64,000 nucleotides of DNA from Candidatus Margulisiibacteriota bacterium (GCA_042562495.1 JBHPMC010000001.1:41983-105982); one strand, 5' to 3'. Shown: positions 2,918 through 48,665, counted from the first letter of the stretch. Notes: generated by a model not told the origin, from the letters alone. Translations and numbers: made by a program.

Positions 2918-2919
2918 AG

Positions 2920-7777: not shown

Positions 7778-10700
7778 CTAAACGGTTATCAAACCAGGAT
7801 TTCTTCTATAGTGCTCCTGTAGCGACACCACTCTCAAGGCCTGCGTCTTCAAGGCCTCGATACTTTTTACCGCGGCTTGTGCTGCGGCCATTGTCGTAAT
7901 GCAAAAAACCTTGTGCCTCAGCGCTGCTTCTCGCATAAAAAAATCGTCAACATGCGGGCCCTTCCCCGAAGGCGTATTGATCACCAGGGAGATCTCTCTT
8001 TTCTTAATAGCATCTACCACGTTGGGATGCCCCTCTCTTATTTTAAGCACTTCTTTAACTTCAATATTGTTTTCTCTTAAAAATGCCGCAGTCCCTTTCG
8101 TGCACAACAGCTTGAAGCCAAACCCTTTCAGCTTGCGAGCGACATCCAGACAATGCTCGGTCTTGTCTCTTTTTACCACGGAAAGAAAAGCCGTTCCCGA
8201 CAGAGGTATTTTTTCTCCGGCAGCCATTTCCGCCTTGGCTAGAGCCAAGCCAAGGTCCATATCGATACCCATAACCTCTCCCGTCGATTTCATTTCAGGC
8301 CCCAAGACCGTGTCTTGGCCAGAAAACTTAGCAAAAGGAAGCACTACTTCTTTTACCGAAAAATAACTGGGCTCGATTTCTTTTAGCTCAAGCTCTGCTA
8401 TAGTTTTGCCCGCCATTACTCGCGCCGCCATTTTAGCCCAGGGGACCCCAGTGGCTTTGCTCACAAAAGGTATTGTCCTGGATGCGCGCGGATTCACTTC
8501 TAACACGAACAATTTATTCTTTTGCACAGCATATTGGATATTCATCAAGCCCACCACTCCTAGCTCAGCTGCTAATTTGTATGTCTGTTCTTTGATCTGC
8601 TTTACCAGCTCGGGCTTTAAAGAAACTGTCGGCAACACACATGCGCTATCCCCGGAATGTATCCCCGCTCTTTCTATGTGTTCCATTACACCGGCGATCA
8701 GGCATTGCTCTCCGTCTGCCAAGGCATCCACGTCAACCTCAATCGCATCTTCTAGGAATTTATCTACCAAAACCGGATGCTCCTCCGAGGCCTCAATTGC
8801 TAGCTGGGCGTATTTTTCCAAGCTTTTTTCATCATAAACGATCTCCATCGCTCTCCCCCCCAACACATAAGAAGGCCTGACGATAACAGGATAGCCAATA
8901 TTTTTAGCGATCTTTTTAAGCTCACCCAAAGATCTGGCTGCACCATTTGCAGGCTGCAATATCTCTAGCTTGTGCAATAAAGCACCGAACTCCCCCCGAT
9001 CTTCTGCACGGTGAATCGCCGCTGGTGTAGTTCCCAATATTTTTGCGCCCGCCTTTTCCAAGGACACCGCCAGGTTCAAGGGCGTCTGCCCGCCAAGCTG
9101 GACAATAACACCCTTAGGCTTTTCTCTTTTTATTATATTTAATACATCATCATAAGTCAGTGGCTCAAAATACAAGAGATTGGAAGTGTCATAATCAGTA
9201 CTTACTGTTTCCGGATTACAATTGACCATAACGGTCTCATACCCATCCACCTTAAGCGCAAAGGAAGCGTGGACACAACAATAATCAAATTCTATCCCTT
9301 GCCCAATACGATTGGGGCCGCCGCCTAAAATAATGATCCTTTCTTTTTTATTTTTAGCAGGGGTTATTTCATCCTCAAGATCATATGTTGAATAATAATA
9401 CGGCGTTTTTGCTTCAAATTCTGCCCCGCAGGTATCTACTTTTTTATAAACTCTTGATAATTGTTTTCCTTGAACCTCTGTTGAAATATTTTCATTTGAG
9501 ACTATCTCTTCGATCTGGCTTAAGAACCAGGGATCGATCTGGGTTAATTCTGCGATCTTTTCCATTTGCCATTTTTGACGAAAAGCTTCAAAAATATAAT
9601 AAAGCCGCACACTATTGGGAATCTTCAGCTTCTCTTCTATGTTTTGCAGGTCTAGCTTGGGCTTGGATATCTCCATCGAGCGCATTGCTTTTACTAATGA
9701 CTCTTTAAAGGTCCGCCCAATGGCCATTGCTTCGCCCACCGATTTCATCTGTGTGTTCAGCACATCTTTTGTGTCGGGAAATTTTTCAAAAGCGAACCTG
9801 GGGATCTTGGTCACTACATAATCGATAGTTGGCTCAAAAGACGCCGGGGTTTCTTTGGTGATATCGTTGGGGATCTCCTCCAACGTATAGCCCACGGCCA
9901 ACTTGGCTGCTATCTTTGCAATTGGGAATCCCGTGGCCTTTGACGCCAAGGCCGAGCTGCGCGACACCCTCGGATTCATTTCAATAATAATTACACGCTT
10001 GCTCTTGGGATCCATGGCAAATTGGACATTGGAACCTCCGGTATCTACCCCGATCTCTCGCATCACTGCAATCGAATGATCGCGCAACACTTGGTATTCC
10101 TTGTCGGTCAAGGTCTGTACCGGCGCCACAGTAATGCTATCCCCGGTATGCACTCCCATTGGATCAAGGTTCTCTATGGAACAAATGATAACGACATTGT
10201 CTTTAAGATCCCGCATGACCTCTAGCTCGATCTCTTTCCAGCCGATTATCGATTCTTCTACTAAAACCTGACCGATAGTGCTTGCATCAATTGCCTTTTG
10301 CACCATTAACTCTAGTTGTTCTTGATCATAGGCTACTCCGCCCCCGGTTCCGCCCAAGGTAAAAGCAGGCCTTAAAATAAGTGGATACCCCAGCTCTTCT
10401 GCCACCTTGATCGCATCTTCAACACCATAGACCTCTCTGCTTTTAGGCATTTCCAGCCCTATTTTAAACATTGCTTCTTTAAACAATTCTCTATCTTCTG
10501 CTTTTTTTATGGCCTCTAATTTAGCCCCGATAAGCTCCACATTATATTTTTTTAAAATACCTTTTTCTGCTAAGTGCACTGCCGCATTAAGGGCGGTCTG
10601 CCCTCCCACTGTCGGCAGGATAGCATCTGGCCGCTCTTTTTTAATGATCTCTTCTATAACTTCTGGAGTAATTGGCTCAACGTAAGTCTTTGAAGCAAAT

Positions 10701-10876
10701 TCCGGATCGGTCATAATAGTAGCCGGGTTGCTGTTGATCAAAACAACTTCATAACCCTCTTCTTTCAGCGCCTTACAAGCTTGCGTCCCGGAATAATCGA
10801 ATTCGCAGGCTTGCCCTATGACAATCGGCCCGGCACCAATGATCATTATTTTTTTTAAATCTGTCCGTTTAGGCAT
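7778..10876 (-). CDS. carB: carbamoyl-phosphate synthase large subunit, paralog 1 (1032 aa)
   Basis: MPKRTD...[22 protein letters not shown], two ATP-grasp halves and a C-terminal MGS-like domain. Confidence 0.95.
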
Positions 10877-10897
10877 ATTTATTACTAGGTAAAAAGA

Positions 10898-13800
10898 CTA
10901 TATATTCTTCACAAGCACTTTTTCATTTTCTTTATTTATAATATCTTGATGATACTCTTGCAAGGATTTTACTTCCGGGGCTTTCCCCTGATAAGCCTCG
11001 ATCCCCTTGGCTGCAGCAAGCGCGGCTGCTATGGTTGTGACATACGGGATCTTATGCTTAATGGCTGCTTTGCGTATGTAAGAATCATCGTCTTGGCTTA
11101 TTTTTCCACTAGGAGTATTGATAATAAGCTGGATCTCCCCATTCTCAATAGCGTCTACAATATTAGGTCGGCCTTCGTGCATTTTAAAGACCACTTCAGC
11201 AGCAATGCCGTTTTCTGATAATAATTGCTGTGTTCCCCGTGTAGCTAATATTTTAAAACCGATCTTTTTAAAAGCTTGAGCGACCTTTATTACAGCTTTC
11301 TTGTCAGTATCAGAAACTGTTATCAATGCCGTTCCCGACGAGGGCAAGCAAGCATTTGCCGCATCCTGTGCTTTATAAAAAGCTAGCCCAAAAGAATCTG
11401 CTAGCCCCAGAACCTCACCTGTAGAACGCATTTCTGGCCCCAAAATTGGATCAACTTCATGATACATATTAAACGGGAACACCGCCTCTTTGACCCCAAA
11501 ATGATCTGCGTTCTTGTTTTCCGGCTTTAAAGAAGATAGCTTTTTGCCCAACAAAAGCTGAGTCGCTATTTTTACCATGTTTATTCCACACACCTTAGAC
11601 ACCAAGGGTACTGTCCTGGAAGCCCTGGGATTTGCTTCTAAGATATAAACCTTATCGTCAGCAATAGCATATTGAATATTCATTAATCCGACCACTTTAA
11701 ATTCTATAGCGATCTTTTTTGTATATTCCCTTATCGTCTTAAGATGTTTCTCTGGGATATTTACCGAAGGTAGCACACAGGCTGAATCGCCGGAGTGTAC
11801 GCCGGCTTGTTCGATATGTTCCATAATGGAAGGAATAAAAACATCTTTGCCATCTGAGATGGCATCTGTTTCAACCTCCATGGCATTTTCTAGGAATTTG
11901 TCTATCAACAAAGGTCTCTCCGGAGATACGTCTACGGCCTTGGCAACATAATGACGCAGCATTTCTTCGTCATGAATAACTTCCATCGCCCGCCCGCCCA
12001 GCACAAAAGAAGGCCGCACCATCAAGGGATAGCCGATCTTATCCGCAACATTCAGAGCCTCGTCAACCGTGCTGGCCATTCCAGATTCGGGCTGAGGAAT
12101 ATTTAATTTTTCCATTTTCCGGCGGAATTTATCGCGATCTTCTGCTAAAGCAATGGTGCCGGTGGATGTGCCAAGGATACGAACGCCTTCTTGCTCCAGC
12201 TCCTCGGCAATATTCAGCGGAGTTTGGCCTCCAAACTGGACGATCGCTCCTTCCGGTTTTTCTTTTTGGTAGATACTAAGAACATCTTCTACGGTCAGTG
12301 GTTCAAAATATAATTTGTCGGACGTGTCGTAATCTGTAGAAACGGTCTCCGGATTACAATTGACCATAATGGTCTCATAGCCTTCCTCTTTTAAAGCAAA
12401 AGCCGTGTGCACACAACAATAATCGAACTCGATCCCCTGGCCAATACGATTGGGCCCGCCACCCAGCACTAGGATCTTTTTACTGCTACTGGAACTTACT
12501 TTATCAGAAGCATTATATGTAGAAAAATAATACGCCGCATTTTCAACTCCACTTATCGGCACGGGCTCCCACCCCTCGGTGATCCCCAGCTTGGCCCGCT
12601 GCTGTCTTATTTCTTTTTCGGGAATATTTAATATTTTTGCCAGATATTTGTCTGCAAATCCATCTTTTTTTACTTGAGTTAAGAGCTCGTCCGGCAAATT
12701 CTTGCCTTTGAACTTAAGCACTTTTTCTTCAAGCTCTACAAGCTCCTTCATTTGCTCAACAAACCAGGCTTTTTGATGGGTTCGATTGACAATCTCTTCA
12801 ACGGCAGCGCCTTTGCGCAACGCTTCATATATAAGGAATTGTCTTTCGCTGGAAGGAGTAACGATCTTTTCTAATAATGTCTGTAACGGCAATTCGGAAA
12901 AATCCTTGGCAAATCCCAGGCCATAACGTCCGTTCTCCAGTGACCTTATTGCTTTTTGAAAAGCTTCTTTATAATTTTTTCCAATGCTCATGACTTCGCC
13001 TACGGCACGCATCTGGGTGCCCAGCTTATCTTCTGCCCCTTTAAATTTTTCAAATGCCCAGCGTGCAAATTTAACCACCACGTAATCACCAGCCGGTGTA
13101 TATTTCTCTAGGGTGCCGTCGCGCCAATAGGGGATTTCATCCATGGTAAGTCCGCAGGCAAGCATTGAAGATATCAAGGCAATAGGAAATCCAGTAGCCT
13201 TTGATGCCAAGGCAGATGAACGCGAAGTCCGCGGATTGATCTCGATGACGACGACTCGTCCGGTTTTTGGATCGTGGGCAAACTGAACATTCGTGCCCCC
13301 GATCACCCCAATGGCATCAACAATATCATAAGAATATTTTTGGAGACGCGCTTGTAATTCTTTGCTGATAGTTAACATTGGCGCAGTACAGTATGAATCC
13401 CCCGTATGGATACCCATGGGATCTACATTTTCAATAAAACAAACCGTTATCTTATTGTTTTTAGCATCACGCACCACTTCCAGCTCTAGCTCTTCCCAAC
13501 CCAGCACAGATTCTTCTACTAAGACCTGCCCCACTGGGCTTGCAGATAATCCGCGTGCCGCTACGGTACGCAGCTCTTCTTTGTTATATACTAAGCCCCC
13601 GCCTGTGCCGCCCATTGTATATGCCGGACGTAAGACTACCGGATAACCCAATTCCTCTGCTATTGATTCGGCTTCTTCCACGCTTTGGGAAGGCTTGCTT
13701 CTGGGCATATCTATGCCCAGCTTGTTCATGGTCTCTTTAAAAACAATGCGGTCTTCCCCACGCTCAATAGCATCCATGTTGACCCCAATTACCTGAACCC

Positions 13801-14134
13801 CATATTTATCTAAGATACCTTTTTTATATAGCGCAGAAGAAAGGTTAAGCCCTGTTTGCCCGCCAAGGTTCGGCAATAAAGCATCTGGCCGCTCTTTAAT
13901 AATGATCTCTTCCAATGTTTTGATATTCAAAGGCTCAATATAGGTAACATCTGCCATTGCAGGATCGGTCATAATTGTTGCTGGATTAGAATTCACTAAT
14001 ACTATTTTATAGCCTAAGCTGCGCAAGGCCTTACATGCCTGTGTGCCGGAATAATCAAATTCGCAAGCCTGTCCAATAATGACCGGACCTGAACCAATAA
14101 TTAATACTTTCTTAATATCTGTCCTTTTAGGCAT
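10898..14134 (-). CDS. carB: carbamoyl-phosphate synthase large subunit, paralog 2 (1078 aa)
   Basis: Full-length CarB architecture. N-terminus is nearly identical in motif content to paralog 1; the oligomerisation region is longer. Confidence 0.95.
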   Translation of the reverse strand: MPKRTDIKKVLIIGSGPVIIGQACEFDYSGTQACKALRSLGYKIVLVNSNPATIMTDPAMADVTYIEPLNIKTLEEIIIKERPDALLPNLGGQTGLNLSSALYKKGILDKYGVQVIGVNMDAIERGEDRIVFKETMNKLGIDMPRSKPSQSVEEAESIAEELGYPVVLRPAYTMGGTGGGLVYNKEELRTVAARGLSASPVGQVLVEESVLGWEELELEVVRDAKNNKITVCFIENVDPMGIHTGDSYCTAPMLTISKELQARLQKYSYDIVDAIGVIGGTNVQFAHDPKTGRVVVIEINPRTSRSSALASKATGFPIALISSMLACGLTMDEIPYWRDGTLEKYTPAGDYVVVKFARWAFEKFKGAEDKLGTQMRAVGEVMSIGKNYKEAFQKAIRSLENGRYGLGFAKDFSELPLQTLLEKIVTPSSERQFLIYEALRKGAAVEEIVNRTHQKAWFVEQMKELVELEEKVLKFKGKNLPDELLTQVKKDGFADKYLAKILNIPEKEIRQQRAKLGITEGWEPVPISGVENAAYYFSTYNASDKVSSSSSKKILVLGGGPNRIGQGIEFDYCCVHTAFALKEEGYETIMVNCNPETVSTDYDTSDKLYFEPLTVEDVLSIYQKEKPEGAIVQFGGQTPLNIAEELEQEGVRILGTSTGTIALAEDRDKFRRKMEKLNIPQPESGMASTVDEALNVADKIGYPLMVRPSFVLGGRAMEVIHDEEMLRHYVAKAVDVSPERPLLIDKFLENAMEVETDAISDGKDVFIPSIMEHIEQAGVHSGDSACVLPSVNIPEKHLKTIREYTKKIAIEFKVVGLMNIQYAIADDKVYILEANPRASRTVPLVSKVCGINMVKIATQLLLGKKLSSLKPENKNADHFGVKEAVFPFNMYHEVDPILGPEMRSTGEVLGLADSFGLAFYKAQDAANACLPSSGTALITVSDTDKKAVIKVAQAFKKIGFKILATRGTQQLLSENGIAAEVVFKMHEGRPNIVDAIENGEIQLIINTPSGKISQDDDSYIRKAAIKHKIPYVTTIAAALAAAKGIEAYQGKAPEVKSLQEYHQDIINKENEKVLVKNI

Positions 14135-14136
14135 GC

Positions 14137-14868
14137 TTATTCTTTCCGCAATTTGAGATAAATGCTTGGACCAAATCTAACAAAACCTAATGGGGTTTGC
14201 AATAGATTTTCTAGCCATAATAAAACCCCGGGACCAAATAACTGCTTAAGAAAGCTCCATCGAAAATTTGAAACACTTAGCACCTTTTCGATCCTAAAGC
14301 CTGCTTTTTGACACAGCTTTTCAATATAGGCAGGATGATAATTATAAAAACCTTTTTGATTCCGGTCGGAAACATTATGTTTGAATGGGTTCATTTTTGA
14401 ACGCCCTATTAAAAATCGGCCAATTTCCTTAAAATTCCTTTTGTTGGCATACTCTAGAACGAACACTCCTTTCGGCCTTAATACTCGGGCTGCCTCTGCC
14501 AAGACCTTTTCAATTTTTTCCAAATGGTGGGAAACACGCACCATTAACACCGTGTCCGTGAACAAGGCATCGTAAGGCAAGCTATTGATATCCCCTTGTT
14601 GAAAGGAAAACCTTTCTGTATCTTGGTGCTTTTTCTTGGCCTGTTCCAATAAATTGTCTGCATAATCAAATAGGGTGATCTTTTGAAAACGATCTTGATA
14701 AACTTCCGCAAGCCGCCCAAATCCTGCGCCTAACTCAAGGATAGAGACGCCTTGTTCCGGCAATAGCTTAAGGACCGCGATTTTATCCGCCCCGTCCTCA
14801 TATTCGCGTTTTTGGTCCTGCCAAAACTCCTGCTTATAATCAGTATCTGAATAGTCACAAATTGGCAT
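14137..14868 (-). CDS. class I SAM-dependent methyltransferase
   Basis: 243-aa ORF. ILELGAGFGRL glycine-rich SAM motif I and VLRPKGVFVL post-motif. Confidence 0.7.
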   Translation of the reverse strand: MPICDYSDTDYKQEFWQDQKREYEDGADKIAVLKLLPEQGVSILELGAGFGRLAEVYQDRFQKITLFDYADNLLEQAKKKHQDTERFSFQQGDINSLPYDALFTDTVLMVRVSHHLEKIEKVLAEAARVLRPKGVFVLEYANKRNFKEIGRFLIGRSKMNPFKHNVSDRNQKGFYNYHPAYIEKLCQKAGFRIEKVLSVSNFRWSFLKQLFGPGVLLWLENLLQTPLGFVRFGPSIYLKLRKE

Positions 14869-15058: not shown

Positions 15059-18000
15059 ATGGGAAATCTTATTAAAAAGATAATTTCTTTTCCTTCTTCT
15101 ACCGAAGCAATAAATCCGCTTACAAGCGAGAAGTATCTGCCAACAAAACCTGGTAAAACTTTTGCGCTTTCTTTGATCAACGCACAGTTTGCCCGGGGCG
15201 AGGCCGCAGTGCTAACTCCTCATGGCTATTCTGAGATCGGCCTTGAGGCAACCATTGATCAAAAAAGAAAGCTTTTGCTGGAGGCGATCCCCGAAGTGCG
15301 CATCCAGGCCCAGCTGCTTATAAACAGCGTGGCCTTAAAAAAAGAGCTCCTAGAAGAGCTGCTAACCCACCTCGACCACGCCAAGAGACAAGGCCTTTCG
15401 CCAAAAAAGACATCCCAAGACCTCCAGGCAATCGTTAAGAAGTGGGAAGGAATCTGCGCCGCAAAGCTAGCTAACAACGCTAAAGACCTTAACAAGGAAT
15501 TGGTTGAGCTCGTTGAAAAATCAAAATATGATGATTTAAAGGAAGGCGCCGAGAGCAGGATTGAAGCGCTGTTCGTTAGAAAAGCAGAAAAATGCAAGAT
15601 CCAAGTAGGAGAAAAATTTCTCAAAACCCTATCCCATGAGCTCAGCTCTAATACAGACAATCTTGCCCACATTAAAAGCTATCTTAATGCTGCATACACA
15701 AACATCAACAAGCTTGCCGATTATTATGGCGGGCAATCTGCCTTTACTTCATACCTAAAAGAATTTTGCCGGATCCTAACTGTAAAAAAAGACGTGTTTA
15801 AAACCCTGGAAGAGCCCATCGATATTGACGAATTCCTGAGCAAGAAAGAAACCCTGCCCAAGATCATTGTTGAGCTTGGCGATGTCTTGGGCTCGCAAAA
15901 AAGAGAAGAGGTCGTAAGAGACATTTTTGATGGCCGGGCTAACAAGCTCCTTGCCGAGGATATTCCCTTTAAAGAACGAGAATACAACTGGGGTGAAGAG
16001 ATCTCTAATGCGGCAGGATTTTTTGCAAAATTTCTAGACAAGAATTTCTTGCAAGGAAATTCCTTGCCCCAAAATCCGATCATTTTTGCCAAAGAGCTTT
16101 CCCCGGTTGATTATGCCTTGCTTCCAATGGATGTCTTAGGCGTTGTTTTGTCCAAATGCAGCCCGCTTTCTCATATTGCCGTGGTTTCCAAGGGAAGCTC
16201 TCGGGCAGTGGTCACCAACAGAACGCTGTTGGCCAAACTCGAGGTTGAGAATGGGGATAGCATCCTGATCAATCCTGTCCGCAAAACAATAACGATCAAT
16301 CCAAACATTGATCAAGCCAAGGCGTTTTTTAAAGATAGGGCCCTCTTCTCTGAAAACAACGAGCTCAACAAGCTTTCGGAAACCTTTGTCTATGGCAAAA
16401 CCCCGGTTTCTTTGGATAACCGCGATCTTTCCCTTTCTGTTATTGTTAATACTCTTGCGGACATAAAACAGCTCAGAGAAATTGCCGAGGATCAGCAAAA
16501 TGATAGGCAGACTAAACAGCGCCAAAAAGATATCGGGCTTATCCGCCAAGAGCTATTGTTGGAGCTGGGAGACAGTCGTGGCCTTCCTTCTCTGGCAGAA
16601 TATTTTATGTTTAATTTTTACGCGGTCTCAACTGCCGACAAAGAGGTTGTTTTTAGAACTTTAGATATAAACGATACGGATAAAAGCACTTTTCGAGGAG
16701 AGGCCGCTCAGGGCAAATATGGCCTCGACTGGGACCTTGCTCATCCGGTTAATTTTAAAAACGAGATCAAGGCTTTTTACTATAGTGCAAACTTATGCCC
16801 AGAAAAACAGGTAAAGATAGTATTCCCGCAGGTCTACAATGCGGAGCAGGTAAAGGCAGCGCGCCGCCTGGTAAGACAGGCCGAAAAAGAGCTGCTTAAA
16901 GATGATGCTAAAACTTTCCCGGGCAAAAAGATGCCTAAAAACATATCCTTTGGGATCATGGTAGAAGATGCGCGCCTTGTTAAAAAGAATTTTAATGAGC
17001 TTAAAAAGATCTTGGCCCTTGGCTGGATCAAACACCTGCGTATCGGCGGCAACGATTTTTGCTGCAGCATCCTAGGCAAGAAAAGAGATGCTCTTTTAGA
17101 AAGCGACTTCTATTCGCCTAAGTTCCTGCGGGCGCTAAACGATCTGGTGTCTTTTGTTTCCAAAGAATACCCCGGGATCCGCATCGGCTTTTGCGGCCAT
17201 GCCGCCTCGGACAAAAACAAGCTGCCGACCCTGACAGGGCTTGGCTTAAGCGAATTTGCCGTTGGCCTGGACAGCTATTACTCTTCCAAGATGCGGATCA
17301 TCCGTGAGCTGCATGTTTCTGCTTGGCAAAAAGAAGTGGCCAAGTTACTTTCGTCAAATCTTTCGAAAAAAGAGCTTCAGGCGCGTCTTTCTCCGGAGCT
17401 TTTTATCAACATGAACAACAACAATGAGCTGACCTTTTTAAGACAATTTAAAGAGACAAAGGATGCACACGACGAGCTTCAGGCTGCCCACAAAGAACTC
17501 CAGCAAAGCCACGAAGAAATAGAATCCTTGTCTTCCAAGCTAACGAGCGATAATGAGATCCTTAACCTCTTCTTTAACATGGTAGCCTTTTTAAAGAAAA
17601 ACAGGCTTGACCACCCGGACAACCTAGAAAAAGCCTATGCACTCTTGTGGCGATATTCAGAAGTAAAATCTTTCTTCCAGACCGGGGAAGACTTGGTGCC
17701 GGACAAAATATTCACACGCCTACCAGAGGATTCCATGGGAATAAAAACAGCCAAGGAATATGTCAGCCTGGTTAAGACCGACAACTATATGAAGACTGTT
17801 TTTGCAGAGCAGGGGCCAAGTGGCGGCCATGTTCATAAAATGAAAGAGCTGTCTTTTGAAGACAAGCTCCTCCTCGAATACGCAACCAAGATATTTTCTC
17901 TTAAGGTAGATGATCCTCAGGAAATATTTAAGGCAGGCTCGCCGGATGAGGCCTCAGAAGTTGGCGGATATCTGGACGAGGGAAAGAACGTTTATGTATA

Positions 18001-18850
18001 TTTAGACATAAATACTCAGCGCCCCGTTGGCCTTTGTATCAGGAATCTGGATAAATATATTGAGGCCCACTATAAAGACAAAGACGATGCTGACTTGAAG
18101 AAAAAGCTGCTTGGTCTTCGCGCAGAAAAAAAGAAAAAATATCCCGGAGACGATGGGTCTACTATATTCTGGAAGATCCCACATCATCTGGAAGGCCACG
18201 GCGCTAGCCACAAAATACTTCGCTTTTCCAGAGAAATAGATTCTACAAATATTTATAAGCTTTGTGGCACCAAGCCCAATGGTGTTTTCCCGAAAAGCAC
18301 CGATGCTAATAACCCGGGCTTTTTTGCAGACATCAATAGCAACTACATCCCGCAGTTCGTTAGCTCTCCGGAAAAGACCAAAAAGAAAGCTTTGCGCAAA
18401 GCAGGAAAATCCTCTGCTGAGCCCAAGAAAAAAGATCCTGGCGCCCCATTAAAAAAAGAAATTCTTGGTGGAACGGAAAAAAACAGGGTTAAAATAAAGT
18501 ATGCCCAGGTCGTTTCTCCGGAAGGCATGATCGCCCTTGCTTCAGAAAAATTTGTGCTTGGGCTGCCCGCAGGGATACATGCCCGCCCCGCTACAGATCT
18601 TGCCATGCTATTGGGAACGCTCCCTGTAGTCCTGGCTAACGAAGACGGGATTGAATTCACCAACCAGGGCATAATGGATTGGCTTGCTTGTGGTCCGAAA
18701 TTTCTGCCAAAAAAGAAGCTCACCCTCTCCTGCACATTTGAGTCCAAGGACCTCGCAAAAAATGAAGCGCTGTTTATAAAGGCGCTTGAATATTTAAGCA
18801 ATGACGACGATGACTACCTAAAAGATCATCTCAAGAACGCAAAAGGATAA
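15059..18850 (+). CDS. giant PEP-utilizing Enzyme I-like protein fused to a C-terminal HPr-like domain, with a helical N-terminal extension of about 340 aa and a central region of about 360 aa of unknown function
   Basis: Residues 345-425 (LLPMDVLGVVLSKCSPLSHIAVVSKGSSRAVV...ILINPVRK) match the EI phosphohistidine swivel domain with a candidate His372 (nt 16172-16174). VFRTLDI, FGIMVEDA, RIGGNDFCCSILG and IGFCGHAASD align to the EI PEP-binding TIM-barrel motifs (LFRTEF, GIMIE, IGTNDLTQYTLA, CGE). The C-terminal 1145-1250 has GLPAGIHARPATDLAMLLG, the HPr His15 signature (His codon 18578-18580), followed by an HPr-like fold pattern. Confidence 0.7.
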   Translation: MGNLIKKIISFPSSTEAINPLTSEKYLPTKPGKTFALSLINAQFARGEAAVLTPHGYSEIGLEATIDQKRKLLLEAIPEVRIQAQLLINSVALKKELLEELLTHLDHAKRQGLSPKKTSQDLQAIVKKWEGICAAKLANNAKDLNKELVELVEKSKYDDLKEGAESRIEALFVRKAEKCKIQVGEKFLKTLSHELSSNTDNLAHIKSYLNAAYTNINKLADYYGGQSAFTSYLKEFCRILTVKKDVFKTLEEPIDIDEFLSKKETLPKIIVELGDVLGSQKREEVVRDIFDGRANKLLAEDIPFKEREYNWGEEISNAAGFFAKFLDKNFLQGNSLPQNPIIFAKELSPVDYALLPMDVLGVVLSKCSPLSHIAVVSKGSSRAVVTNRTLLAKLEVENGDSILINPVRKTITINPNIDQAKAFFKDRALFSENNELNKLSETFVYGKTPVSLDNRDLSLSVIVNTLADIKQLREIAEDQQNDRQTKQRQKDIGLIRQELLLELGDSRGLPSLAEYFMFNFYAVSTADKEVVFRTLDINDTDKSTFRGEAAQGKYGLDWDLAHPVNFKNEIKAFYYSANLCPEKQVKIVFPQVYNAEQVKAARRLVRQAEKELLKDDAKTFPGKKMPKNISFGIMVEDARLVKKNFNELKKILALGWIKHLRIGGNDFCCSILGKKRDALLESDFYSPKFLRALNDLVSFVSKEYPGIRIGFCGHAASDKNKLPTLTGLGLSEFAVGLDSYYSSKMRIIRELHVSAWQKEVAKLLSSNLSKKELQARLSPELFINMNNNNELTFLRQFKETKDAHDELQAAHKELQQSHEEIESLSSKLTSDNEILNLFFNMVAFLKKNRLDHPDNLEKAYALLWRYSEVKSFFQTGEDLVPDKIFTRLPEDSMGIKTAKEYVSLVKTDNYMKTVFAEQGPSGGHVHKMKELSFEDKLLLEYATKIFSLKVDDPQEIFKAGSPDEASEVGGYLDEGKNVYVYLDINTQRPVGLCIRNLDKYIEAHYKDKDDADLKKKLLGLRAEKKKKYPGDDGSTIFWKIPHHLEGHGASHKILRFSREIDSTNIYKLCGTKPNGVFPKSTDANNPGFFADINSNYIPQFVSSPEKTKKKALRKAGKSSAEPKKKDPGAPLKKEILGGTEKNRVKIKYAQVVSPEGMIALASEKFVLGLPAGIHARPATDLAMLLGTLPVVLANEDGIEFTNQGIMDWLACGPKFLPKKKLTLSCTFESKDLAKNEALFIKALEYLSNDDDDYLKDHLKNAKG

Positions 18851-19054: not shown

Positions 19055-20410
19055 CTATTTGCCTACACAAAAATTATCAAAAATGTGATTTATAACTTCA
19101 TCAGAAACTTCATCGCCTGTTATTTCGCCCAGGGCAACTATCGCGGCCTTGATATCGATCGTCAAGAGATCTTGGACAACACCTTCGGCCAAGGCTTTTT
19201 CAACACGACGCAAGGCTTGTTCGGCCTCAAGCAGCCGCTCCTTTTGGCGGGCCTCCATAATGATCGGGGAAGAAGATTCCCTTTGCTCAAGAACCCCCGC
19301 TTGCTTGACCATCCTTTTCTCAAGAAGCCTTATTCCCTGTCCCGTTTTTGCAGAAACGCGAATGTCTGCGGCATTGTTCTTTTTTTTGTTGGCCAGATCT
19401 TGCTTGTTGCCCACAACCAGAACGGCAACTCCCCTGCCCTTTAATTCATTTATTTTTTCTTTTTCCTTTTTTGAAAGTTTTTTACTAACGTCCACTACAA
19501 ACAGTACCAGATCGGCAGTCTCTACATGCGCCAATGTTTTTTCTATGCCTATGCGTTCGACATGGCCCGGGTCGTGCCGCAGGCCTGCGGTATCGATAAG
19601 CCTTACCGGAACACCGCTTAGCGTTATTACATCTTCTATGGCATCTCGTGTTGTGCCGGGAATTTCTGTAACAATAGCTTTTGAATCGCCCACAAGGCAG
19701 TTCAGCAGGCTGGACTTGCCAACATTGGGCGCCCCGGCAATAACAACCTTCAATCCCTCTTTTAATAAAACTCCCCGCTTGTTCGTCTCGAGCAGCACCC
19801 TGGTCTTTGCCAACGCGTTACCCACTTGTTTTTTTAATGACTTTTTTGGTAGCTCTGTTAGCTCGTCTGGATAGTCCAAGGCAGCCTCAATCCTGGCTAA
19901 CAGCGCAACTAGCGTATATCGAATGTTTTTTGTTTCTTTAGAAAGTGCGCCCTCAAGGTGCAATAGCGCCGCCTGCGCAGCCTCAGTCGTGTTTGCAGAA
20001 ACTAGCTGGGCCACTGCCTCGGCCTGAGCCAGGTCTATCCTGCCTGCCAAAAAAGCCCTCTTGGTAAATTCCCCGCGGGCTGCAAGGCGCGCGCCATATT
20101 TAATTGCGGTGTTCAATAAACGATGGACGACCACCGGATTCCCGTGAGCGCTTATCTCTACAACGTCTTCTCCCGTATAGGTTTTTGGGCCCTTCATTGC
20201 CCACACTAGGGATTCGTCGATCTTTTTATTTTCCGGATCGAATATCGGGGCAAAGCAGACCTTGCGGGAGGAAAAGCTCTTTTTGTTTTTTTGTTTACAA
20301 AGTCTCTGTAATAAAAAAAACGATTTGGGTCCCGAGATGCGCACAAGCGCAACTCCGCTGCGGCCCGGAGGTGTTGCTAAAGCAATGATCGTATCTTGGG
20401 AGGCGGACAC
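19055..20410 (-). CDS. mnmE: tRNA modification GTPase MnmE
   Basis: 451-aa ORF. G-domain motifs GAPNVGKSSLLN and DTAGLR. C-terminal CVGK motif. Confidence 0.9.
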   Translation of the reverse strand: MSASQDTIIALATPPGRSGVALVRISGPKSFFLLQRLCKQKNKKSFSSRKVCFAPIFDPENKKIDESLVWAMKGPKTYTGEDVVEISAHGNPVVVHRLLNTAIKYGARLAARGEFTKRAFLAGRIDLAQAEAVAQLVSANTTEAAQAALLHLEGALSKETKNIRYTLVALLARIEAALDYPDELTELPKKSLKKQVGNALAKTRVLLETNKRGVLLKEGLKVVIAGAPNVGKSSLLNCLVGDSKAIVTEIPGTTRDAIEDVITLSGVPVRLIDTAGLRHDPGHVERIGIEKTLAHVETADLVLFVVDVSKKLSKKEKEKINELKGRGVAVLVVGNKQDLANKKKNNAADIRVSAKTGQGIRLLEKRMVKQAGVLEQRESSSPIIMEARQKERLLEAEQALRRVEKALAEGVVQDLLTIDIKAAIVALGEITGDEVSDEVINHIFDNFCVGK

Positions 20411-20436
20411 CTGCGCTCCTTTGGCCCGCTGGGGCC

Positions 20437-21057
20437 CTATTTGTTTTCTTCGACAGGAGCCTCTTCTTGTTGTGTGGACTCTGTATTTTCCGGCGCCATT
20501 CCTGGGGCAACTATTAGCCTGCGCGATTGTCTCTCGCCCGTGCTATAAGTATGCACGTCTTTTCTGTTCGACAGCTCCGCATGGATAACCCTACGCTCGT
20601 TGGCGCCCATTGGCTCTAGCTCCACGGGCTTTTGTTGGTGGACTGCCATTTGGGCAGCATCCTTGGCTATTCTGCATAAAGTTTGTTCCCTGCGATAACG
20701 ATAATCATTTGCATCGATCTTCACTAAAACTCGGGAGGCTTTCTGTTTGCTTAAGATCCCGCCGATCAGACATTGGAGAGCATTCAGCGTGGCGCCCTCC
20801 TTGCCAATAAGCCGCCCCATTTCTTCTCCTTGCATATCTAAATACAGGATCCCCTGGTCATCTTCTCGAGCCTTTATCTTTGGAGAAAAGCCCATCTTGC
20901 TCAATATTCCCTGGAGCTTTTCTACGCCGGTCTCGGCCAAAGGCGAAAGCTTTTTATCTGGCGCAGCTTGTTCTGGCGCCTGGTCTTCCTCGGCGATCGG
21001 CACTGGCTCCTTTTTTTCGTTTTTTTTCTTACCAAAAATCCCAAAAATTTCTTTCAT
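20437..21057 (-). CDS. jag: RNA-binding protein Jag/KhpB (KH plus R3H domains)
   Basis: MKEIFGIFGKKK... start chosen inside the longer ORF. ANERRVIHAEL is an R3H motif. Classic position after yidC. Confidence 0.8.
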   Translation of the reverse strand: MKEIFGIFGKKKNEKKEPVPIAEEDQAPEQAAPDKKLSPLAETGVEKLQGILSKMGFSPKIKAREDDQGILYLDMQGEEMGRLIGKEGATLNALQCLIGGILSKQKASRVLVKIDANDYRYRREQTLCRIAKDAAQMAVHQQKPVELEPMGANERRVIHAELSNRKDVHTYSTGERQSRRLIVAPGMAPENTESTQQEEAPVEENK

Positions 21058-21058
21058 A

Positions 21059-21832
21059 CTATCCTCCTTGTTTGTTTTCCGACTTTTCCGACTCGGAGGT
21101 GTTTTCAACCTCAATCACCGCGACTTTTTCTTTGACCATTTTTTGCTTGGAAAGAAAATATTGCTGTGCTGCCATCAACGAATTAGATGTACACCAATAC
21201 AATAAAACTCCGGTCGGCAAATTTGCGCAAATAAAAAGCATGAAGATCGGCATAAAGGCCATCATTTTTGTTTGCGACGACTCGGTGTTCGCAGACATTG
21301 TCTTTTGAGTTAAGTAAGTAGATAGGCCAACCAACAAAACCAATGGAGATAGGAACTTTAAAAGCGGCAGCTTATCCACTAGCCCTATCAACGCCGGCTG
21401 CCTCCATTCTGCCAAAGCAAAATCTTTGATCCAGAAAAAAGTCCCCGCAGCCCCTGAGTCGCGAATGACTCCCTGCACTTCCGGATTGTTCAGCGTGGCA
21501 AACAACGCAATTATGATCGGCAATTGTAAAAGCACCGGCAAGCATCCGCCCAGGGGATTCACTCCGTGCTCTTTATAAAGCAAGAGCGTCTCTTGCTGCA
21601 TTTTTTGCGGATCTTTACTGTGTTTGCTCTGCACTTCCTTAAGCCGGGGCTGGATCTTTTGCATCGCCGACATGGATTCGTACTGCTTGGCAGACAACGG
21701 ATAAAGCGCGGCCCGAACAGCCACTGTTAGAAAAATAATTGCCCAGCCGTAATTCCTCGTGATCTGAAAAAAGAACTCCAGCGCAGGAAAGGTCAAGTCT
21801 ATTAATATATTTCCCGTTTGAACTGTTTGCAT
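21059..21832 (-). CDS. yidC: membrane protein insertase YidC (short form)
   Basis: 257-aa ORF. YGWAIIFLTVAVRAALYPLSAKQYESMSAMQKIQP is the conserved YidC/Oxa1 core. Confidence 0.9.
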   Translation of the reverse strand: MQTVQTGNILIDLTFPALEFFFQITRNYGWAIIFLTVAVRAALYPLSAKQYESMSAMQKIQPRLKEVQSKHSKDPQKMQQETLLLYKEHGVNPLGGCLPVLLQLPIIIALFATLNNPEVQGVIRDSGAAGTFFWIKDFALAEWRQPALIGLVDKLPLLKFLSPLVLLVGLSTYLTQKTMSANTESSQTKMMAFMPIFMLFICANLPTGVLLYWCTSNSLMAAQQYFLSKQKMVKEKVAVIEVENTSESEKSENKQGG

Positions 21833-21856
21833 TATTGTTTAGCCCTCCTCATAAAT

Positions 21857-22066
21857 TTATGGCACAGGATCTTCGCCACCAGAATGCCAGGGATGACATT
21901 TGGCAAGGCGTTTGATCCCCAGCCATATTCCTCGGCTTGCGCCATGTTTTTCCACTGCCCGCAAAGTATATTCAGAGCAAGTTGGATGAAAGCGACAAGC
22001 TTTGCGTGATAAAGGCCGTAAATATTTTTGATAAAAACGGATCAGTAAAATTATAACGGCCTTCAT
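21857..22066 (-). CDS. yidD: membrane protein insertion efficiency factor YidD
   Basis: Internal start MKAVIILLIRFYQKYLRPL...CRFHPTCSEY is the YidD signature. Overlaps the rnpA stop. Confidence 0.8.
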   Translation of the reverse strand: MKAVIILLIRFYQKYLRPLSRKACRFHPTCSEYTLRAVEKHGASRGIWLGIKRLAKCHPWHSGGEDPVP

Positions 22067-22392
22067 CTTTTTTTCAAAAAACCTTTCAGCGCGCTTTCTA
22101 GCGCTGCGCGAATAGCCGGCTCTTTCTGCTGCAAGATAGCCCTTTTGGCAATAATTACCAGCTGCCCCGCTGGCCCTTGCCTTCGCCAAAGCCTCCTTGC
22201 TGCTTCCCGCAACAAGCGCTTTGCGCGATTTCTTTTTACAGCGTTGCCGACCTTACCGCCGGCAATGATCCCTAATTTTAGTTTTGCATCCCCTGGAAGA
22301 TAGCAGACGGTGAAAATTCCTGTTGTTAACTGCTTCCCTTTTTTATAAATTAAACTAAAATCACTTTTTTCCCGGATGCGTCCCAGCGCCAT
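22063..22392 (-). CDS. rnpA: ribonuclease P protein component
   Basis: 109-aa basic protein with RNase P protein motif KVGNAVKRNRAKRLLREA. Confidence 0.85.
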   Translation of the reverse strand: MALGRIREKSDFSLIYKKGKQLTTGIFTVCYLPGDAKLKLGIIAGGKVGNAVKRNRAKRLLREAARRLWRRQGPAGQLVIIAKRAILQQKEPAIRAALESALKGFLKKR

Positions 22393-22396
22393 AAAA

Positions 22397-22531
22397 TTAT
22401 GCCGAAAGACGTTTTCTGCCCTTGGCTCTGCGTGAACGCAAGGTATTCCTTCCGGACTGAGTTCTTGTTCTGGATAAAAATCCGTGCTTCTTTTTTCGCC
22501 TTCTTGCTTTTGGCTGAAATGTTCTTTTCAA
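22397..22531 (-). CDS. rpmH: 50S ribosomal protein L34 (TTG start)
   Basis: Translated by hand: [51 protein letters not shown] upstream. Not in the ORF track because it is 44 aa. Confidence 0.85.
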
Positions 22532-22696
22532 TTTATTCTGCCTCCTAAATTAAGGACGTTGATTATAACGACACTGTTTTAGGGCTGTCAAGGCACCAGG
22601 CCCCTAGAAAAAAATCCCTGGGATTTTTCGGTCCCGCTTTCGATATCCTGCAGGCCAAGCCTTGACTGCGATCAAGGGCTGGGATCAAGGAGAATT

Positions 22697-23302
22697 ATGT
22701 TTAATAAAATAATTTCTGCCAAACCTTTTTGCATCCCGCATTTTAGCGAAAAGCTTGTTCCGGGTGTTCACTATAAGATCGCCATTTGCTTGCCCAGGCA
22801 TACGGTAATAAATCTGGGGCCAGATGCTCGCCTAGAAAATGAAGATGACGAGCAGTTCTTTAAAGACCTGCTGCCTACCTGCGAAAAAAAATGCAAAGGC
22901 CTCTTCCCTCGGGGCAAAAACAAAAAGCTGGAAAGGCTTAAGCAATTTGTTTTGATCGGAATCTTTCGGATCCGTAAAAATCCGAAAGATAAGCACGTCG
23001 ATCTCGGCGCGGCGCTGGAGCCACCTCTCTATAAAGATAAGCTCGGACAATATAACTACTATATGTTTCGCAACGCAGTGATCCAAAGCGCTTGCGCCTT
23101 GGCCTCGTTTCTAAAAGAGAACCATGTCCCCCTGCATGGAGTAAGCTTTTTTCTTTCGGGCTTCCACGCCGGGGCCCAGAACGGGGCTTCAACAATAGCG
23201 CAAGAATGGATCGGCGAATTCTCTGAAGCATTAAAAGGGTCTCGCTCTTTGCTGGACTATATAGCGCTCCGAAGCCGAGTGCGACACGGAAAAATTAAAT
23301 AG
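22697..23302 (+). CDS. hypothetical protein inserted between rpmH and dnaA
   Basis: 201-aa ORF co-oriented with dnaA. No recognisable motifs. Confidence 0.4.
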   Translation: MFNKIISAKPFCIPHFSEKLVPGVHYKIAICLPRHTVINLGPDARLENEDDEQFFKDLLPTCEKKCKGLFPRGKNKKLERLKQFVLIGIFRIRKNPKDKHVDLGAALEPPLYKDKLGQYNYYMFRNAVIQSACALASFLKENHVPLHGVSFFLSGFHAGAQNGASTIAQEWIGEFSEALKGSRSLLDYIALRSRVRHGKIK

Positions 23303-23379
23303 TTAACTAGAACGCCCGAAAATAAATTCGCCTTGACGACAAATCTAAAAAAGAGTAAGATTTGCATCCCTTAAAATTA

Positions 23380-23580
23380 GCGCGGTTTTCCACAGCCTGT
23401 TTATTTCCTGTGGAAAAACCAAGAAAAAGCGCCCGCAAGGGCTCTTTGGCTCGATTCTTTATGGATTAATTATTTGCTGCCTTTCGTGGGCATTGTTTTT
23501 TTGCTTCTATACTAAGGAATTTTAAGGGCGCCTGTTATCCACATTGTCCTGTGGATAAAATAGATTAAAGTGGATAACTA
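23380..23580. promoter_or_regulatory. oriC / dnaA promoter region with DnaA-box clusters
   Basis: TTTTCCACA (23386-23394) and TGTGGAAAA (23409-23417) form a perfect inverted pair. TTATCCACA (23535-23543), TGTGGATAA (23550-23558) and AGTGGATAA (23569-23577) lie immediately upstream of dnaA. Confidence 0.6.
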
Positions 23581-23597
23581 GAGGAGCGCTGTGCATA

Positions 23598-24968
23598 ATG
23601 TCTAACAACTTGCCTGATATCTGGAACAAAATCGTTGACTATTTAAAGTCTCAGCTAAGCACTCCGGGGTTTAAGACCTTCCTTTCTTCAACCAAGCCCC
23701 TGGCCTTTAATGAGGGGATCATCCTAATCGGCGTGCCCAATGAATATACAAAAAACTGGATAAAAGAGCGTTGCGAGATCCTTATCAAGGAGTTTCTAAA
23801 AAATTCCCTAAAACAACACATTCTTATTGACTATAAACTAACCGGGGAAGAGCCCGCCGTGGAAATTCCCCAAGAGGGGCATGAGCTGTCCCCCGACATC
23901 TCCGTGGGCAAAAAAGACGATTTGATCCCGGCCCTTGCGGGAGCATATCTAAATCCAAAATACACTTTTGAATCGTTTGTTGTCGGGCACAACAATCGTT
24001 TTGCTCACGCGGCCGCCCTGGCTGTCTCTGAAACCCCGGCAAAAGCATATAATCCCCTTTTCATTTATGGGGGCGTCGGGCTGGGAAAGACCCACCTAAT
24101 GCAGGCTATCGGGCACAAGGCCTTGCAGATCAATCCCAAGCTAAAGGTTCTTTATGTAACGTCCGAACAATTTACTAATGAGCTGATAAATTCTATCCGC
24201 GACGACAAAAACGAAGAATTTCGCGGTCGATATCGAAAAATAGACATTCTGTTGGTCGACGACATCCAGTTTATTGCAGGCAAAGATCGGACCCAAGAAG
24301 AGTTTTTTCACACCTTTAATGCGCTGCACGAGACCAACAAGCAGATCGTTTTGTCTTCGGACCGTCCGCCCCACGATCTCCACGTAGAAGATCGCCTGCG
24401 CACCCGGTTTGCCTGGGGGTTGTCCGCAGACATAAAGCCTCCGGAGCTAGAAACGCGTATTGCTATTCTGCGCAAAAAAGCTGACGGGGAATCTTTAAAC
24501 CTTCCCGACGAAGTGTTGCACTATATTGCCGCGCAGATCCCGTCTAATATTCGCGACCTAGAGGGTGCTCTCATTAAGATTGTTGCGTACTCTTCTTTGG
24601 TCAACTCGGAGCTTTCTGTAGAATTGGCCGCAGATGTAATTAAGGATATTGTTTCTCCTCATCGGGATAAGCCGATAACTATCAGCACCATAAAAAAGGC
24701 TGTTGCTGAATACTTTAAGCTTGAGCCAGATATCTTGTCTGCCAAGCTGCGCACCAAAGACGTTGCCCACGCCAGGCAAACGGCCATGTATTTAGCAAGA
24801 GAGCTGACTACGTCCTCTTTGCCAAAAATCGGTGAAAATTTTGGAGGGCGCGATCACACCACGGTCATGCATGCCTACGACAAAATTAAAGAAGAAATGG
24901 AAAAGGATTCCCAAGTGAACGACCAGGTAAAGAGCATTATGAACAATATCAGCAAGGTCGACGCCTAA
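23598..24968 (+). CDS. dnaA: chromosomal replication initiator protein DnaA
   Basis: 456-aa ORF. AAA+ Walker A GGVGLGKTHL. C-terminal DNA-binding domain. Confidence 0.95.
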   Translation: MSNNLPDIWNKIVDYLKSQLSTPGFKTFLSSTKPLAFNEGIILIGVPNEYTKNWIKERCEILIKEFLKNSLKQHILIDYKLTGEEPAVEIPQEGHELSPDISVGKKDDLIPALAGAYLNPKYTFESFVVGHNNRFAHAAALAVSETPAKAYNPLFIYGGVGLGKTHLMQAIGHKALQINPKLKVLYVTSEQFTNELINSIRDDKNEEFRGRYRKIDILLVDDIQFIAGKDRTQEEFFHTFNALHETNKQIVLSSDRPPHDLHVEDRLRTRFAWGLSADIKPPELETRIAILRKKADGESLNLPDEVLHYIAAQIPSNIRDLEGALIKIVAYSSLVNSELSVELAADVIKDIVSPHRDKPITISTIKKAVAEYFKLEPDILSAKLRTKDVAHARQTAMYLARELTTSSLPKIGENFGGRDHTTVMHAYDKIKEEMEKDSQVNDQVKSIMNNISKVDA

Positions 24969-25216
24969 GCTTAATTTTATACACAGCGGCTTGTTGGTAT
25001 CTTCTAATAACTCTCCGGTTATCCATATATAATTCCTAATTGTTAACAAGTCCCTTTTACTGTAAAATTACGCGCAAGGTTATGCCCAGGATATCAACAA
25101 GGCAAAACGTTGTTTTTTAGTGTATGGGTACCACAAATTGAAATGTATATACATATTCACAGCCCCTACTACTATTACTACTACTTTATAATATATTAAG
25201 AAAGGATTAGTATTTT

Positions 25217-27452: not shown

Positions 27453-27475
<23 letters not shown>
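26366..27475 (+). CDS. recF: DNA replication and repair protein RecF
   Basis: 369-aa ORF. Walker A GKNAQGKTNLLEA. ABC-type signature. Confidence 0.9.
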
Positions 27476-30327
<2,852 letters not shown>

Positions 30328-40234: not shown

Positions 40235-40654
40235 ATGTTCGGCAAGAAAAGAAAAGGGCAAGCCCTTGTAGAATTTTCTTTAGTAATAGTTTTGTTTTTA
40301 TTTATCATCCTGGGGACGATCGATTTTGGTCTATTTCTATACTCCACAATAATCCTAGATACGGCGACCCGAGATGGAGTGCGCGTTGCAGTCGTGCGCA
40401 CGGATTGGGGTACTAATTACGATGATATCGTTGAAGAAATAAAAGATGTTGTAGAAGATCGCTCTCGTTTTTTGCCCGAAACCACCGGGCTGCGTGGCCG
40501 GACAATTGTTACTTTAACGCCGAGTGCGATTGATCCGGAATCTATTACAGTAGAGGTGCGTAACCAGCCTTATAATACAATAAGCGGGTTTTTAGGCTTG
40601 ATCTTGCCGGACGATATCTCAACGGGGGCGACGATGCGATATGAAAAAAGATAA
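40235..40654 (+). CDS. tadE: TadE-like pseudopilin
   Basis: KGQALVEFSLVIVLFLFIILGTIDFG is the TadE/G N-terminal domain. Confidence 0.75.
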   Translation: MFGKKRKGQALVEFSLVIVLFLFIILGTIDFGLFLYSTIILDTATRDGVRVAVVRTDWGTNYDDIVEEIKDVVEDRSRFLPETTGLRGRTIVTLTPSAIDPESITVEVRNQPYNTISGFLGLILPDDISTGATMRYEKR

Positions 40655-41957: not shown

Positions 41958-41958
41958 A

Positions 41959-43699: not shown

Positions 43700-43711
43700 T
43701 GTTGATCCTTT

Positions 43712-44638: not shown

Positions 44639-44644
44639 GGTTGC

Positions 44645-46177: not shown

Positions 46178-46180
46178 AAA

Positions 46181-48654: not shown

Positions 48655-48665
48655 TAATTTCTCCT

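Follow-up and report, generated by a model that had tools for sequence, protein, structure and literature searches.

The locus and its gene

We analysed a stretch of 64,000 nucleotides (64 kb; hereafter the window) from Candidatus Margulisiibacteriota bacterium (GCA_042562495.1 JBHPMC010000001.1:41983-105982), which is part of a 169-kb contig and comes from a phylum that, to our knowledge, is known only from uncultured genomes. The open reading frame (ORF) at 15059..18850 on the + strand begins with ATG and runs uninterrupted, with no frameshift, for 1263 codons and a stop. Its product (NCBI MFC1516981.1, Candidatus Margulisiibacteriota bacterium) is recorded as a 'putative PEP-binding protein' and combines a core related to Enzyme I (EI) of the phosphoenolpyruvate (PEP)-dependent phosphotransferase system (PTS) with a short C-terminal segment resembling the active site of HPr. 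We refer to it as the target; its only close relative in our searches is a protein from another uncultured bacterium, P0003.

The gene is the single + strand gene between − strand neighbours, a methyltransferase gene upstream (divergent) and mnmE downstream (convergent). One flank, on the − strand, holds dnaE, two carB-type genes and the methyltransferase gene; the other holds mnmE, jag and yidC, followed by dnaA, dnaN, recF, dciA, gyrB and gyrA. Scanning the surroundings of the gene for promoters and terminators gave nothing useful above background.

A first-pass annotation, made from the sequence alone, had read the product as EI followed by HPr with two large extra regions. Its motifs lie where it had placed them, with LSH372IAV at 16166-16183, GIH1174ARP at 18572-18589, and VFRT, GIMVEDA, IGGNDF and CGH also present. 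The EI core and the extra regions of that architecture are upheld by our analysis, but as parts of a four-part family protein to which an HPr-like tail appears to have been added in one lineage.

A divergent Enzyme I core

The centre of the protein is firmly established as a genuine but very divergent EI core. In Pfam searches, PEP-utilizers_C (PF02896) matched residues 462-744 with an E value of 4.4e-21 (75.8 bits against a cut-off of 22.8), and the mobile domain PF00391 matched residues 337-405 with 24.2 bits, barely over its cut-off of 23.1; the same domain scored 36.3 bits in P0003. Alignment of the swivel domain to EI with hhalign gave a probability of 97%. Among PDB sequences, E. coli EI was matched at E 2.5e-16, and a two-sequence family profile matched S. 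carnosus EI at E 1.7e-26, at an identity to EI of ~20-25%. The NCBIfam model TIGR01417 (PTS_I_fam) aligned to residues 338-767 with 91 bits, far under its equivalog cut-off of 341.7 (the corresponding values for NF008382 are 71.5 bits and 824). Models for PEP synthase, by comparison, reached just 13-14 bits (E 0.007-0.025) against cut-offs of 598-740.

Structure prediction agreed with these assignments. The AlphaFold2 (AF2) model of residues 1-790, made from an alignment of five rows, has a barrel with a predicted local distance difference test score (pLDDT) of 75-94. Searching with this model in Foldseek ranked full-length EI first (E 5e-22), ahead of pyruvate phosphate dikinase (PPDK) and PEP synthase, and isolated EI C-domains superimposed on the barrel with a template-modelling (TM) score of 0.82 and a root-mean-square deviation of 3.4-3.8 Å. 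Between swivel and barrel, residues 416-460 are the equivalent of the EI linker helix, EI 231-260 (PMC5537066).

We mapped the catalytic residues of E. coli EI onto the target through the hidden Markov model (HMM) alignment produced by HMMER. The phosphorylated His189 corresponds to His372, which is also conserved in P0003, and Arg296, Arg332, Glu431, Asn454, Asp455, Arg465 and Cys502 are likewise kept in both proteins (R496, R533, E636, N665, D666, R676 and C712 in the target barrel), so that eight of the nine catalytic residues, His189 included, are retained. That all eight persist in both members at 33% overall identity argues for retained catalytic function. Both EI assignments of the first-pass annotation, the swivel with His372 and the PEP-binding TIM barrel, are thus borne out, as profile scores, superposition on EI and an unbroken reading frame agree for this part of the protein.

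Compared with EI and PtsP, the β3-α3 loop of the barrel (window 16715-16735, residues 553-559) lacks ~5 residues, and it contains an invariant DLAHP; the equivalent loop of P0003 shares this form.

A two-member family with conserved flanking modules

Word-indexed homologue searches with the full protein, with the N-terminal extension alone and with a two-sequence profile returned, apart from the target itself, only remote proteins of the GAF-EI (PtsP) type, among them P0002, P0004 and P0005, which come closest to the family of all database proteins. With residues 765-1263 as the query, an exhaustive phmmer search of 1.84 billion representatives added a single protein, the 1100-residue P0003, and family-specific pattern scans of genome, metagenome (two) and viral contig collections gave no further members. 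In about 15 billion proteins, the family is thus represented just twice, each time in an uncultured genome, and the HPr-like tail occurs in one of the two members.

P0003 aligns with residues 11-1095 of the target at 33% identity (BLASTP, E 1e-172). Identity ranges from 29% for the N-terminal extension through 36% for residues 771-1095 to 45% for the swivel and likewise for the barrel. Because the region of residues 771-1095 is conserved in P0003 as its C-terminal end, it is a C-terminal module of the family and not, as had been proposed for residues 780-1140, a ~360-residue insert between barrel and HPr, and the tail is a single-lineage addition. By this comparison, the tail is an add-on confined to the Margulisiibacteriota genome.

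The large extra regions noted earlier on both sides of the core are real and go unmatched in Pfam and PDB searches. The 335-residue N-terminal extension has no homologue but P0003 and no Pfam, PDB-sequence or PHROG match; it is not a GAF domain, as neither PF01590 nor PF13185 matched. AF2 modelled it as all-helical, with long helices at low pLDDT. When the N-terminal region of the family was aligned by hhalign to four sequences of the EI N-terminal domain (EIN), the swivel alone aligned. This result, like that of the profile search for the HPr-binding subdomain described below, agrees with the earlier proposal of a helical extension in place of EIN; the all-helical prediction is of low confidence, and a replacement is compatible with these results rather than demonstrated by them. 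We also considered residues 35-52 as the EI N-terminal strand (GIAxGxA), with the extension as an enlarged EIN-alpha insert, and set this aside, as hhalign was unsupportive, the MAFFT placement ambiguous and the AF2 model weak there.

The C-terminal module carries motifs that are invariant between the target and P0003, among them ALLWRYSEV, FWKxP and SREIDS, together with invariant His924, Asp983 and Cys993. Pfam, PDB-sequence and PHROG searches assigned it to no known family, profile searches of the extension and the module against PDB sequences yielded coiled-coil noise only, and PADLOC reported nothing. In a low-confidence AF2 model, a ~60-residue helix (about residues 789-847) is followed by a mixed α/β part; that model, covering residues 765-1263, was built from two alignment rows and has a mean pLDDT of 39.6, which makes a Foldseek search on it meaningless.

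An HPr-type active-site segment in one lineage

The HPr family profile PF00381 matched residues 1162-1184 only, at profile positions 2-25 of 81 (E 0.02-0.05; 14-15.4 bits). This segment of the tail contains GIHARPAT, with His1174 and an Arg two residues on, preceded by a stretch resembling HPr strand 1. The only PDB sequences matching the tail at E up to 10 were two HPr chains (E ~1.2). We also used five annotated HPr-type domains of E. coli (HPr, NPr, FruB, FryA and DhaM) to build HMMs for HPr, with and without the addition of five Gram-positive sequences; the Gram-positive sequences were entered by hand, and E. coli HPr and NPr entered in the same manner were identical to the annotated record. 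With these HMMs the tail scored 16 bits, a value that none of 2000 shuffles reached, and the target ORF was the sole match among 659 six-frame fragments. The whole of this score stems from the ~22 residues of strand 1 and GIHARPAT.

Given its EI core, the protein is very unlikely to carry this HPr-type active-site segment by accident. The assignment to HPr is secure for the ~22 residues around the active site only, and a full HPr fold is conjectural. In the low-confidence AF2 model, the elements that follow the His (α, β, β, α, β, α) resemble HPr in order and spacing; HPr sequences were kept out of the alignment for this prediction because their inclusion would be circular. The position aligned to the regulatory Ser46 holds Gly, within 'NQGIMD', in keeping with the earlier statement that the domain lacks this serine, although the alignment at that position is not statistically supported.

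Integrity of the reading frame

Sequence features of the junction indicate that the target is encoded as a single chain. The 61-codon spacer between the conserved module and an in-frame ATG (M1157) is open in frame, as are just 2.7% of composition-matched shuffles, and both other frames of the spacer carry stops. Relative to ten housekeeping genes of the window, codon usage gave a positive score in frame 0 for each of the six segments of the gene, and negative scores in the two alternative frames; the frame-0 coding log-odds were +0.40 for the linker, the strongest of the gene, and +0.18 for the tail. The linker consists to 69% of Lys, Pro, Gly, Ser, Ala, Glu and Thr, like flexible tethers.

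An artefactual fusion would require an indel in an A-rich homopolymer, merging the gene with a separate small gene that starts at M1157; alternatively, the tail might also be made from this internal start. Such a reading can draw on the three A6-7 runs of the linker (18428, 18451 and 18477), on the placement of the ATG 17 codons before His1174 and behind a GGAAGG, on the end of P0003 close behind the shared module, and on the occurrence of the target gene in one assembly only. We nonetheless consider it very improbable. The open spacer has the strongest host-like codon signal of the gene, comparison with P0003 shows the register kept at 13 other homopolymers of the gene, and none of the long conserved housekeeping genes of the window is broken. 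GGAAGG lies just 1 nt from the ATG, a poor spacing for a ribosome-binding site, and even if the gene were split, an HPr-like gene directly downstream would imply the same functional coupling. The single-chain gene of the first-pass annotation is accordingly retained: one ORF with no frameshift, an open spacer and host-like codon usage throughout (Table 1).

Table 1 Segments of the gene and its product (feature, window coordinates, strand, basis)
Whole gene	15059..18850	+	ORF, neighbours, host-like frame-0 codon usage in every segment
N-terminal extension, residues 1-335	15059..16063	+	No Pfam or PDB match; helices at low pLDDT; 29% identity to P0003
Phosphohistidine swivel domain, residues 336-415	16064..16303	+	PF00391; hhalign 97%; His372 codon 16172-16174
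Connecting helix between swivel and barrel, residues 416-460	16304..16438	+	Aligned to EI 230-270; modelled helix 417-444
EI-type PEP-binding TIM barrel, residues 461-770	16439..17368	+	Profiles, residue map, confident AF2 model
Family-specific C-terminal module, residues 771-1095	17369..18343	+	Conservation with P0003; no known family
Lys/Pro/Gly/Ser-rich linker, residues 1096-1156	18344..18526	+	Open in frame; three A6-7 runs; absent from P0003
C-terminal tail, residues 1157-1263	18527..18847	+	Begins at in-frame ATG M1157
HPr-type active-site segment, residues 1162-1184	18542-18610	+	HMM match; His1174 codon 18578-18580

Comparison with known PEP-utilizing systems

EI of the PTS (PtsI; E. 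coli 2HWG/2KX9, S. carnosus 2HRO) is the best match to the target in both sequence and fold and has the same order of swivel, connecting helix and PEP-binding TIM barrel. The phosphohistidine is kept, as are seven of the eight active-site residues that were checked in the barrel. The target differs in having no detectable EIN helical subdomain, which is either replaced by or hidden within the 335-residue helical extension, in lacking Arg358, and in possessing the additional 325-residue C-terminal module, the linker and the tail; nor does its gene adjoin ptsH or crr. The GAF-EI protein PtsP (EI-Ntr) is likewise an EI paralogue with an extra N-terminal module, in that case a sensory module feeding a regulatory rather than a transport relay. 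PtsP, however, keeps PF05524 and Arg358 and has neither a C-terminal module nor an HPr-like tail, and the N-terminal module of the target is of a type other than GAF.

Multiphosphoryl transfer proteins such as FruB(HI), FryA/PtsA and those of the DhaM type place EI-type and HPr-type carriers on one polypeptide; the target, a single ORF, resembles them to the extent of its HPr-type active-site segment. Those catalogued have the orders IIA-HPr-EI, HPr-EI-IIAFru or HPr-EI, with HPr N-terminal to EI and usually with a IIA domain (PMC2405797); in E. coli FryA, the HPr His is at residue 15, ahead of EI. In contrast, the HPr-like piece of the target is at the extreme C terminus, ~390 residues past the barrel, and a IIA domain is missing. 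The genes of those proteins adjoin permease or Dha kinase genes, whereas the target gene has no such neighbours by tblastn of the window.

PPDK and PEP synthase, which form the second tier of fold matches, share with the target the logic of a swivel His and a PEP barrel combined with a third, partner-specific module. The target lacks their ATP-grasp nucleotide-binding domain (no Pfam match at E up to 10) and departs from their module order, having a module of no known family C-terminal to its barrel. Compared with HPr (PtsH), NPr and Crh, the target has a GIHARPAT identical to that of Gram-positive HPr and a similar length from the His to the end of the protein. Beyond the first helix turn its tail is not recognizably HPr, no Ser occupies the aligned regulatory position, and the segment is fused, whereas HPr is a free-standing protein of 85-90 residues.

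PTS partners in the available DNA

We searched the window and the 23-kb locus of P0003 by tblastn, using as queries the annotated E. coli proteins HPr, NPr, EI, Crr, PtsN, RapZ, FruA, FruB, DhaK, DhaL, DhaM, FryA and FryC. Only the two EI-like genes matched. Homologues of EIIA, EIIB, EIIC, HPr, NPr, RapZ and DhaKLM are absent from the window, in accordance with the earlier statement that no EIIA/B/C genes are nearby, and the target itself gave no Pfam match to a IIA domain.

A possible PEP-driven relay and its alternatives

We think it somewhat probable, given the combination of conserved EI residues and an HPr-type signature, that the target is a deeply diverged PTS EI paralogue that runs a PEP-driven relay from His372 to His1174 within one polypeptide and serves an output other than transport. 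In such a relay, PEP would bind the EI-type barrel and His372 on the swivel domain would become phosphorylated. The swivel would then hand the phosphoryl group to His1174, carried by an HPr-type active-site loop on a flexible, Lys-rich tether of ~60 residues. The output would be something other than sugar transport and may involve the N-terminal extension and the C-terminal module, or a partner whose gene lies at another locus. From this arrangement we infer each transfer of the phosphoryl group, as well as how the tail docks and what kind of output results. The self-contained phosphorelay of the first-pass annotation, regulatory and not transport-linked, stays the best hypothesis in this conditional form.

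Several results weigh against such a relay. On the side of the enzyme, PF05524, the HPr-binding subdomain of EIN, gave no match at E up to 10 to either the whole protein or residues 1-340. Neither the target nor P0003 has an Arg as counterpart of EI Arg358: its place in the target is taken by Asp559 in the HMMER alignment or by Tyr554 in MAFFT, which we used as a second alignment for this residue. Arg358 of EI contacts the PEP phosphoryl group and sits in the β3-α3 loop, which forms the dimer interface (PMC5537066). The shortened loop of the target has an invariant Arg546 further upstream that might substitute for Arg358.

On the side of the tail, the PF00381 score is under the 23-bit gathering cut-off. 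When the motif was held fixed and residues 1185-1263 were shuffled, 13-46% of the shuffles equalled the tail (p 0.13-0.46), and in a global-alignment test of the part behind the motif the tail reached z ~1 (p ~0.15), compared with z 10-20 for left-out E. coli paralogues (NPr, FryA, DhaM and FruB). The AF2 model of the tail is unusable, with a pLDDT of 26-48, and Foldseek on the tail-containing model, at its mean pLDDT of 39.6, retrieved no HPr. The HPr-like domain with GIH1174ARPAT that had been annotated is therefore kept as a signature that no shuffle matched, in front of a remainder at chance level. P0003, moreover, stops ~25 residues past the shared C-terminal module, without the Lys-rich linker and the HPr-like tail; as there is also no HPr within its 23 kb, the core function of the family does not need a fused HPr. 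Finally, the partner search at the target locus covered 64 kb of the 169-kb contig.

Part of this evidence would also fit a chance or convergent GIHARPAT motif, or a catalytically inactive scaffold, and in either case there would be no His-to-His relay. In its favour are the confinement of the HPr signal to 22 residues, the sub-cut-off Pfam score, the loss of Arg358, the remodelled β3-α3 loop and a score of 91 bits against the equivalog cut-off of 341.7. We regard this explanation as improbable, since the Pfam match has E 0.05 for the whole protein against all families and is to the functional partner of the enzyme on the same chain, and since eight catalytic residues invariant at 33% identity are unexpected of a dead enzyme.

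A more serious contender, although in our view still unlikely, is that the family acts on a non-PTS substrate as a PEP-dependent phosphotransferase (kinase), comparable to PEP synthase, PPDK or rifampicin phosphotransferase. Here the swivel His would carry phosphate from the barrel to another active site, located in the C-terminal module or the N-terminal extension, that phosphorylates a small molecule or a protein, and the tail would be an accessory of one lineage. This reading draws its main support from P0003, which has no HPr-like part and keeps every catalytic residue found in the target. It also accounts for the conservation of the C-terminal module, which at 36% is as strong as in much of the protein and includes invariant polar motifs (WRYSEV, SREIDS, His924, Asp983 and Cys993) as in a catalytic or binding domain; neither the target locus nor that of P0003 has PTS partners, and PPDK and PEP synthase, the next-best fold matches, are as a rule built from three modules around a swivel His. 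However, the module matches no known nucleotide-binding, kinase or substrate-binding fold, its model being of low confidence, the barrel and swivel are clearly nearer to EI than to PPDK or PEP synthase, and the HPr-type signature of one member points to protein-His transfer.

Of these readings, the relay from His372 to His1174 is the one we prefer. A broader and more tentative proposal is that the two proteins form a previously unrecognized branch of PEP-utilizing enzymes, in which the EI engine was rewired to a new acceptor or effector, the C-terminal module, with help from the helical N-terminal domain, to give a PEP-sensing or PEP-powered phosphotransferase with a non-PTS target. The Margulisiibacteriota member would then have acquired a carrier loop of the HPr type, set on a scaffold that is minimal or novel, so that the EI-to-HPr step would have arisen a second time with the domains in reverse order.

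EI stands at the point of entry where the PEP/pyruvate ratio is turned into phosphorylation signals, and its known variants differ mainly in having an N-terminal sensor, as PtsP does, or in being fused, always in a fixed order, to HPr and IIA. Judged by its sequence, the target is a real and extremely rare paralogue of the EI family with a new architecture, in which the catalytic engine is kept, the partner-binding region is apparently replaced, a conserved module is added and, in one lineage, an HPr-type site is tethered at the opposite end. If it is active, the EI engine can couple to outputs outside the PTS. The reach of this conclusion is limited by the two known copies, by the lack of a conserved gene neighbourhood and by the lack of an experimental system.

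The P0003 locus and other features of the window

P0003 is encoded on a 117-kb contig of an uncultured-bacterium metagenome-assembled genome (study SRP220891). In its 23-kb locus (L001), rho, rpmE, prfA and prmC lie upstream, and a 205-residue orphan ORF, tRNA-Lys, purA and flagellar genes follow downstream; the two family loci have no neighbours in common. The orphan ORF (L001 13312-13929, +) starts 8 nt past the P0003 stop, has no Pfam, PADLOC or PHROG match and has no counterpart in the window. It is probably co-transcribed with P0003, judging from this spacing, and may be a partner or substrate of the tail-less protein. A second small ORF, of 126 residues (L001 14078-14458, +), overlaps the opposite-strand tRNA-Lys (anticodon TTT, 14335-14410, −) and is thus probably a spurious gene call. 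We considered gene fission, in which a small ORF downstream of P0003 would be the missing HPr, and rejected it: neither of the two ORFs resembles the tail, and the shorter one has the tRNA overlap just described.

The window contains the chromosomal replication-origin region at 20000-26000, where mnmE, jag and yidC (− strand) give way to dnaA, dnaN, recF, dciA, gyrB and gyrA (+ strand). The cumulative GC skew has its minimum at ~22-24 kb, where gene orientation flips, ~5-9 kb away from the target gene. On the other side of the target gene, 7778-14134 (− strand) holds tandem full-length genes of the carbamoyl-phosphate synthase large-subunit type, encoding 1032 and 1078 residues; the first is CPSase_L by Pfam and the second was read as CarB from its translation by eye. 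Further out, at 1814-4230 (− strand), a YheC/D-type ATP-grasp gene adjoins a gene of the alanine dehydrogenase/PNT family, and the two may together constitute a small amino-acid-ligase cassette.

A complete Tad/Flp-type pilus cluster occupies 40641-49442, with genes for TadE/G-like proteins, a prepilin peptidase, two TadB/C (T2SSF) proteins, the TadA ATPase, a ParA-like ATPase, a secretin and RcpC/CpaB, and a protein with three PKD domains is encoded at 38959-39870. Between recF and gyrB, the window carries a DciA-family gene (27453-28337, +), and its presence indicates that the helicase loader of this Margulisiibacteriota organism is of the DciA type and not of the DnaC/DnaI type.

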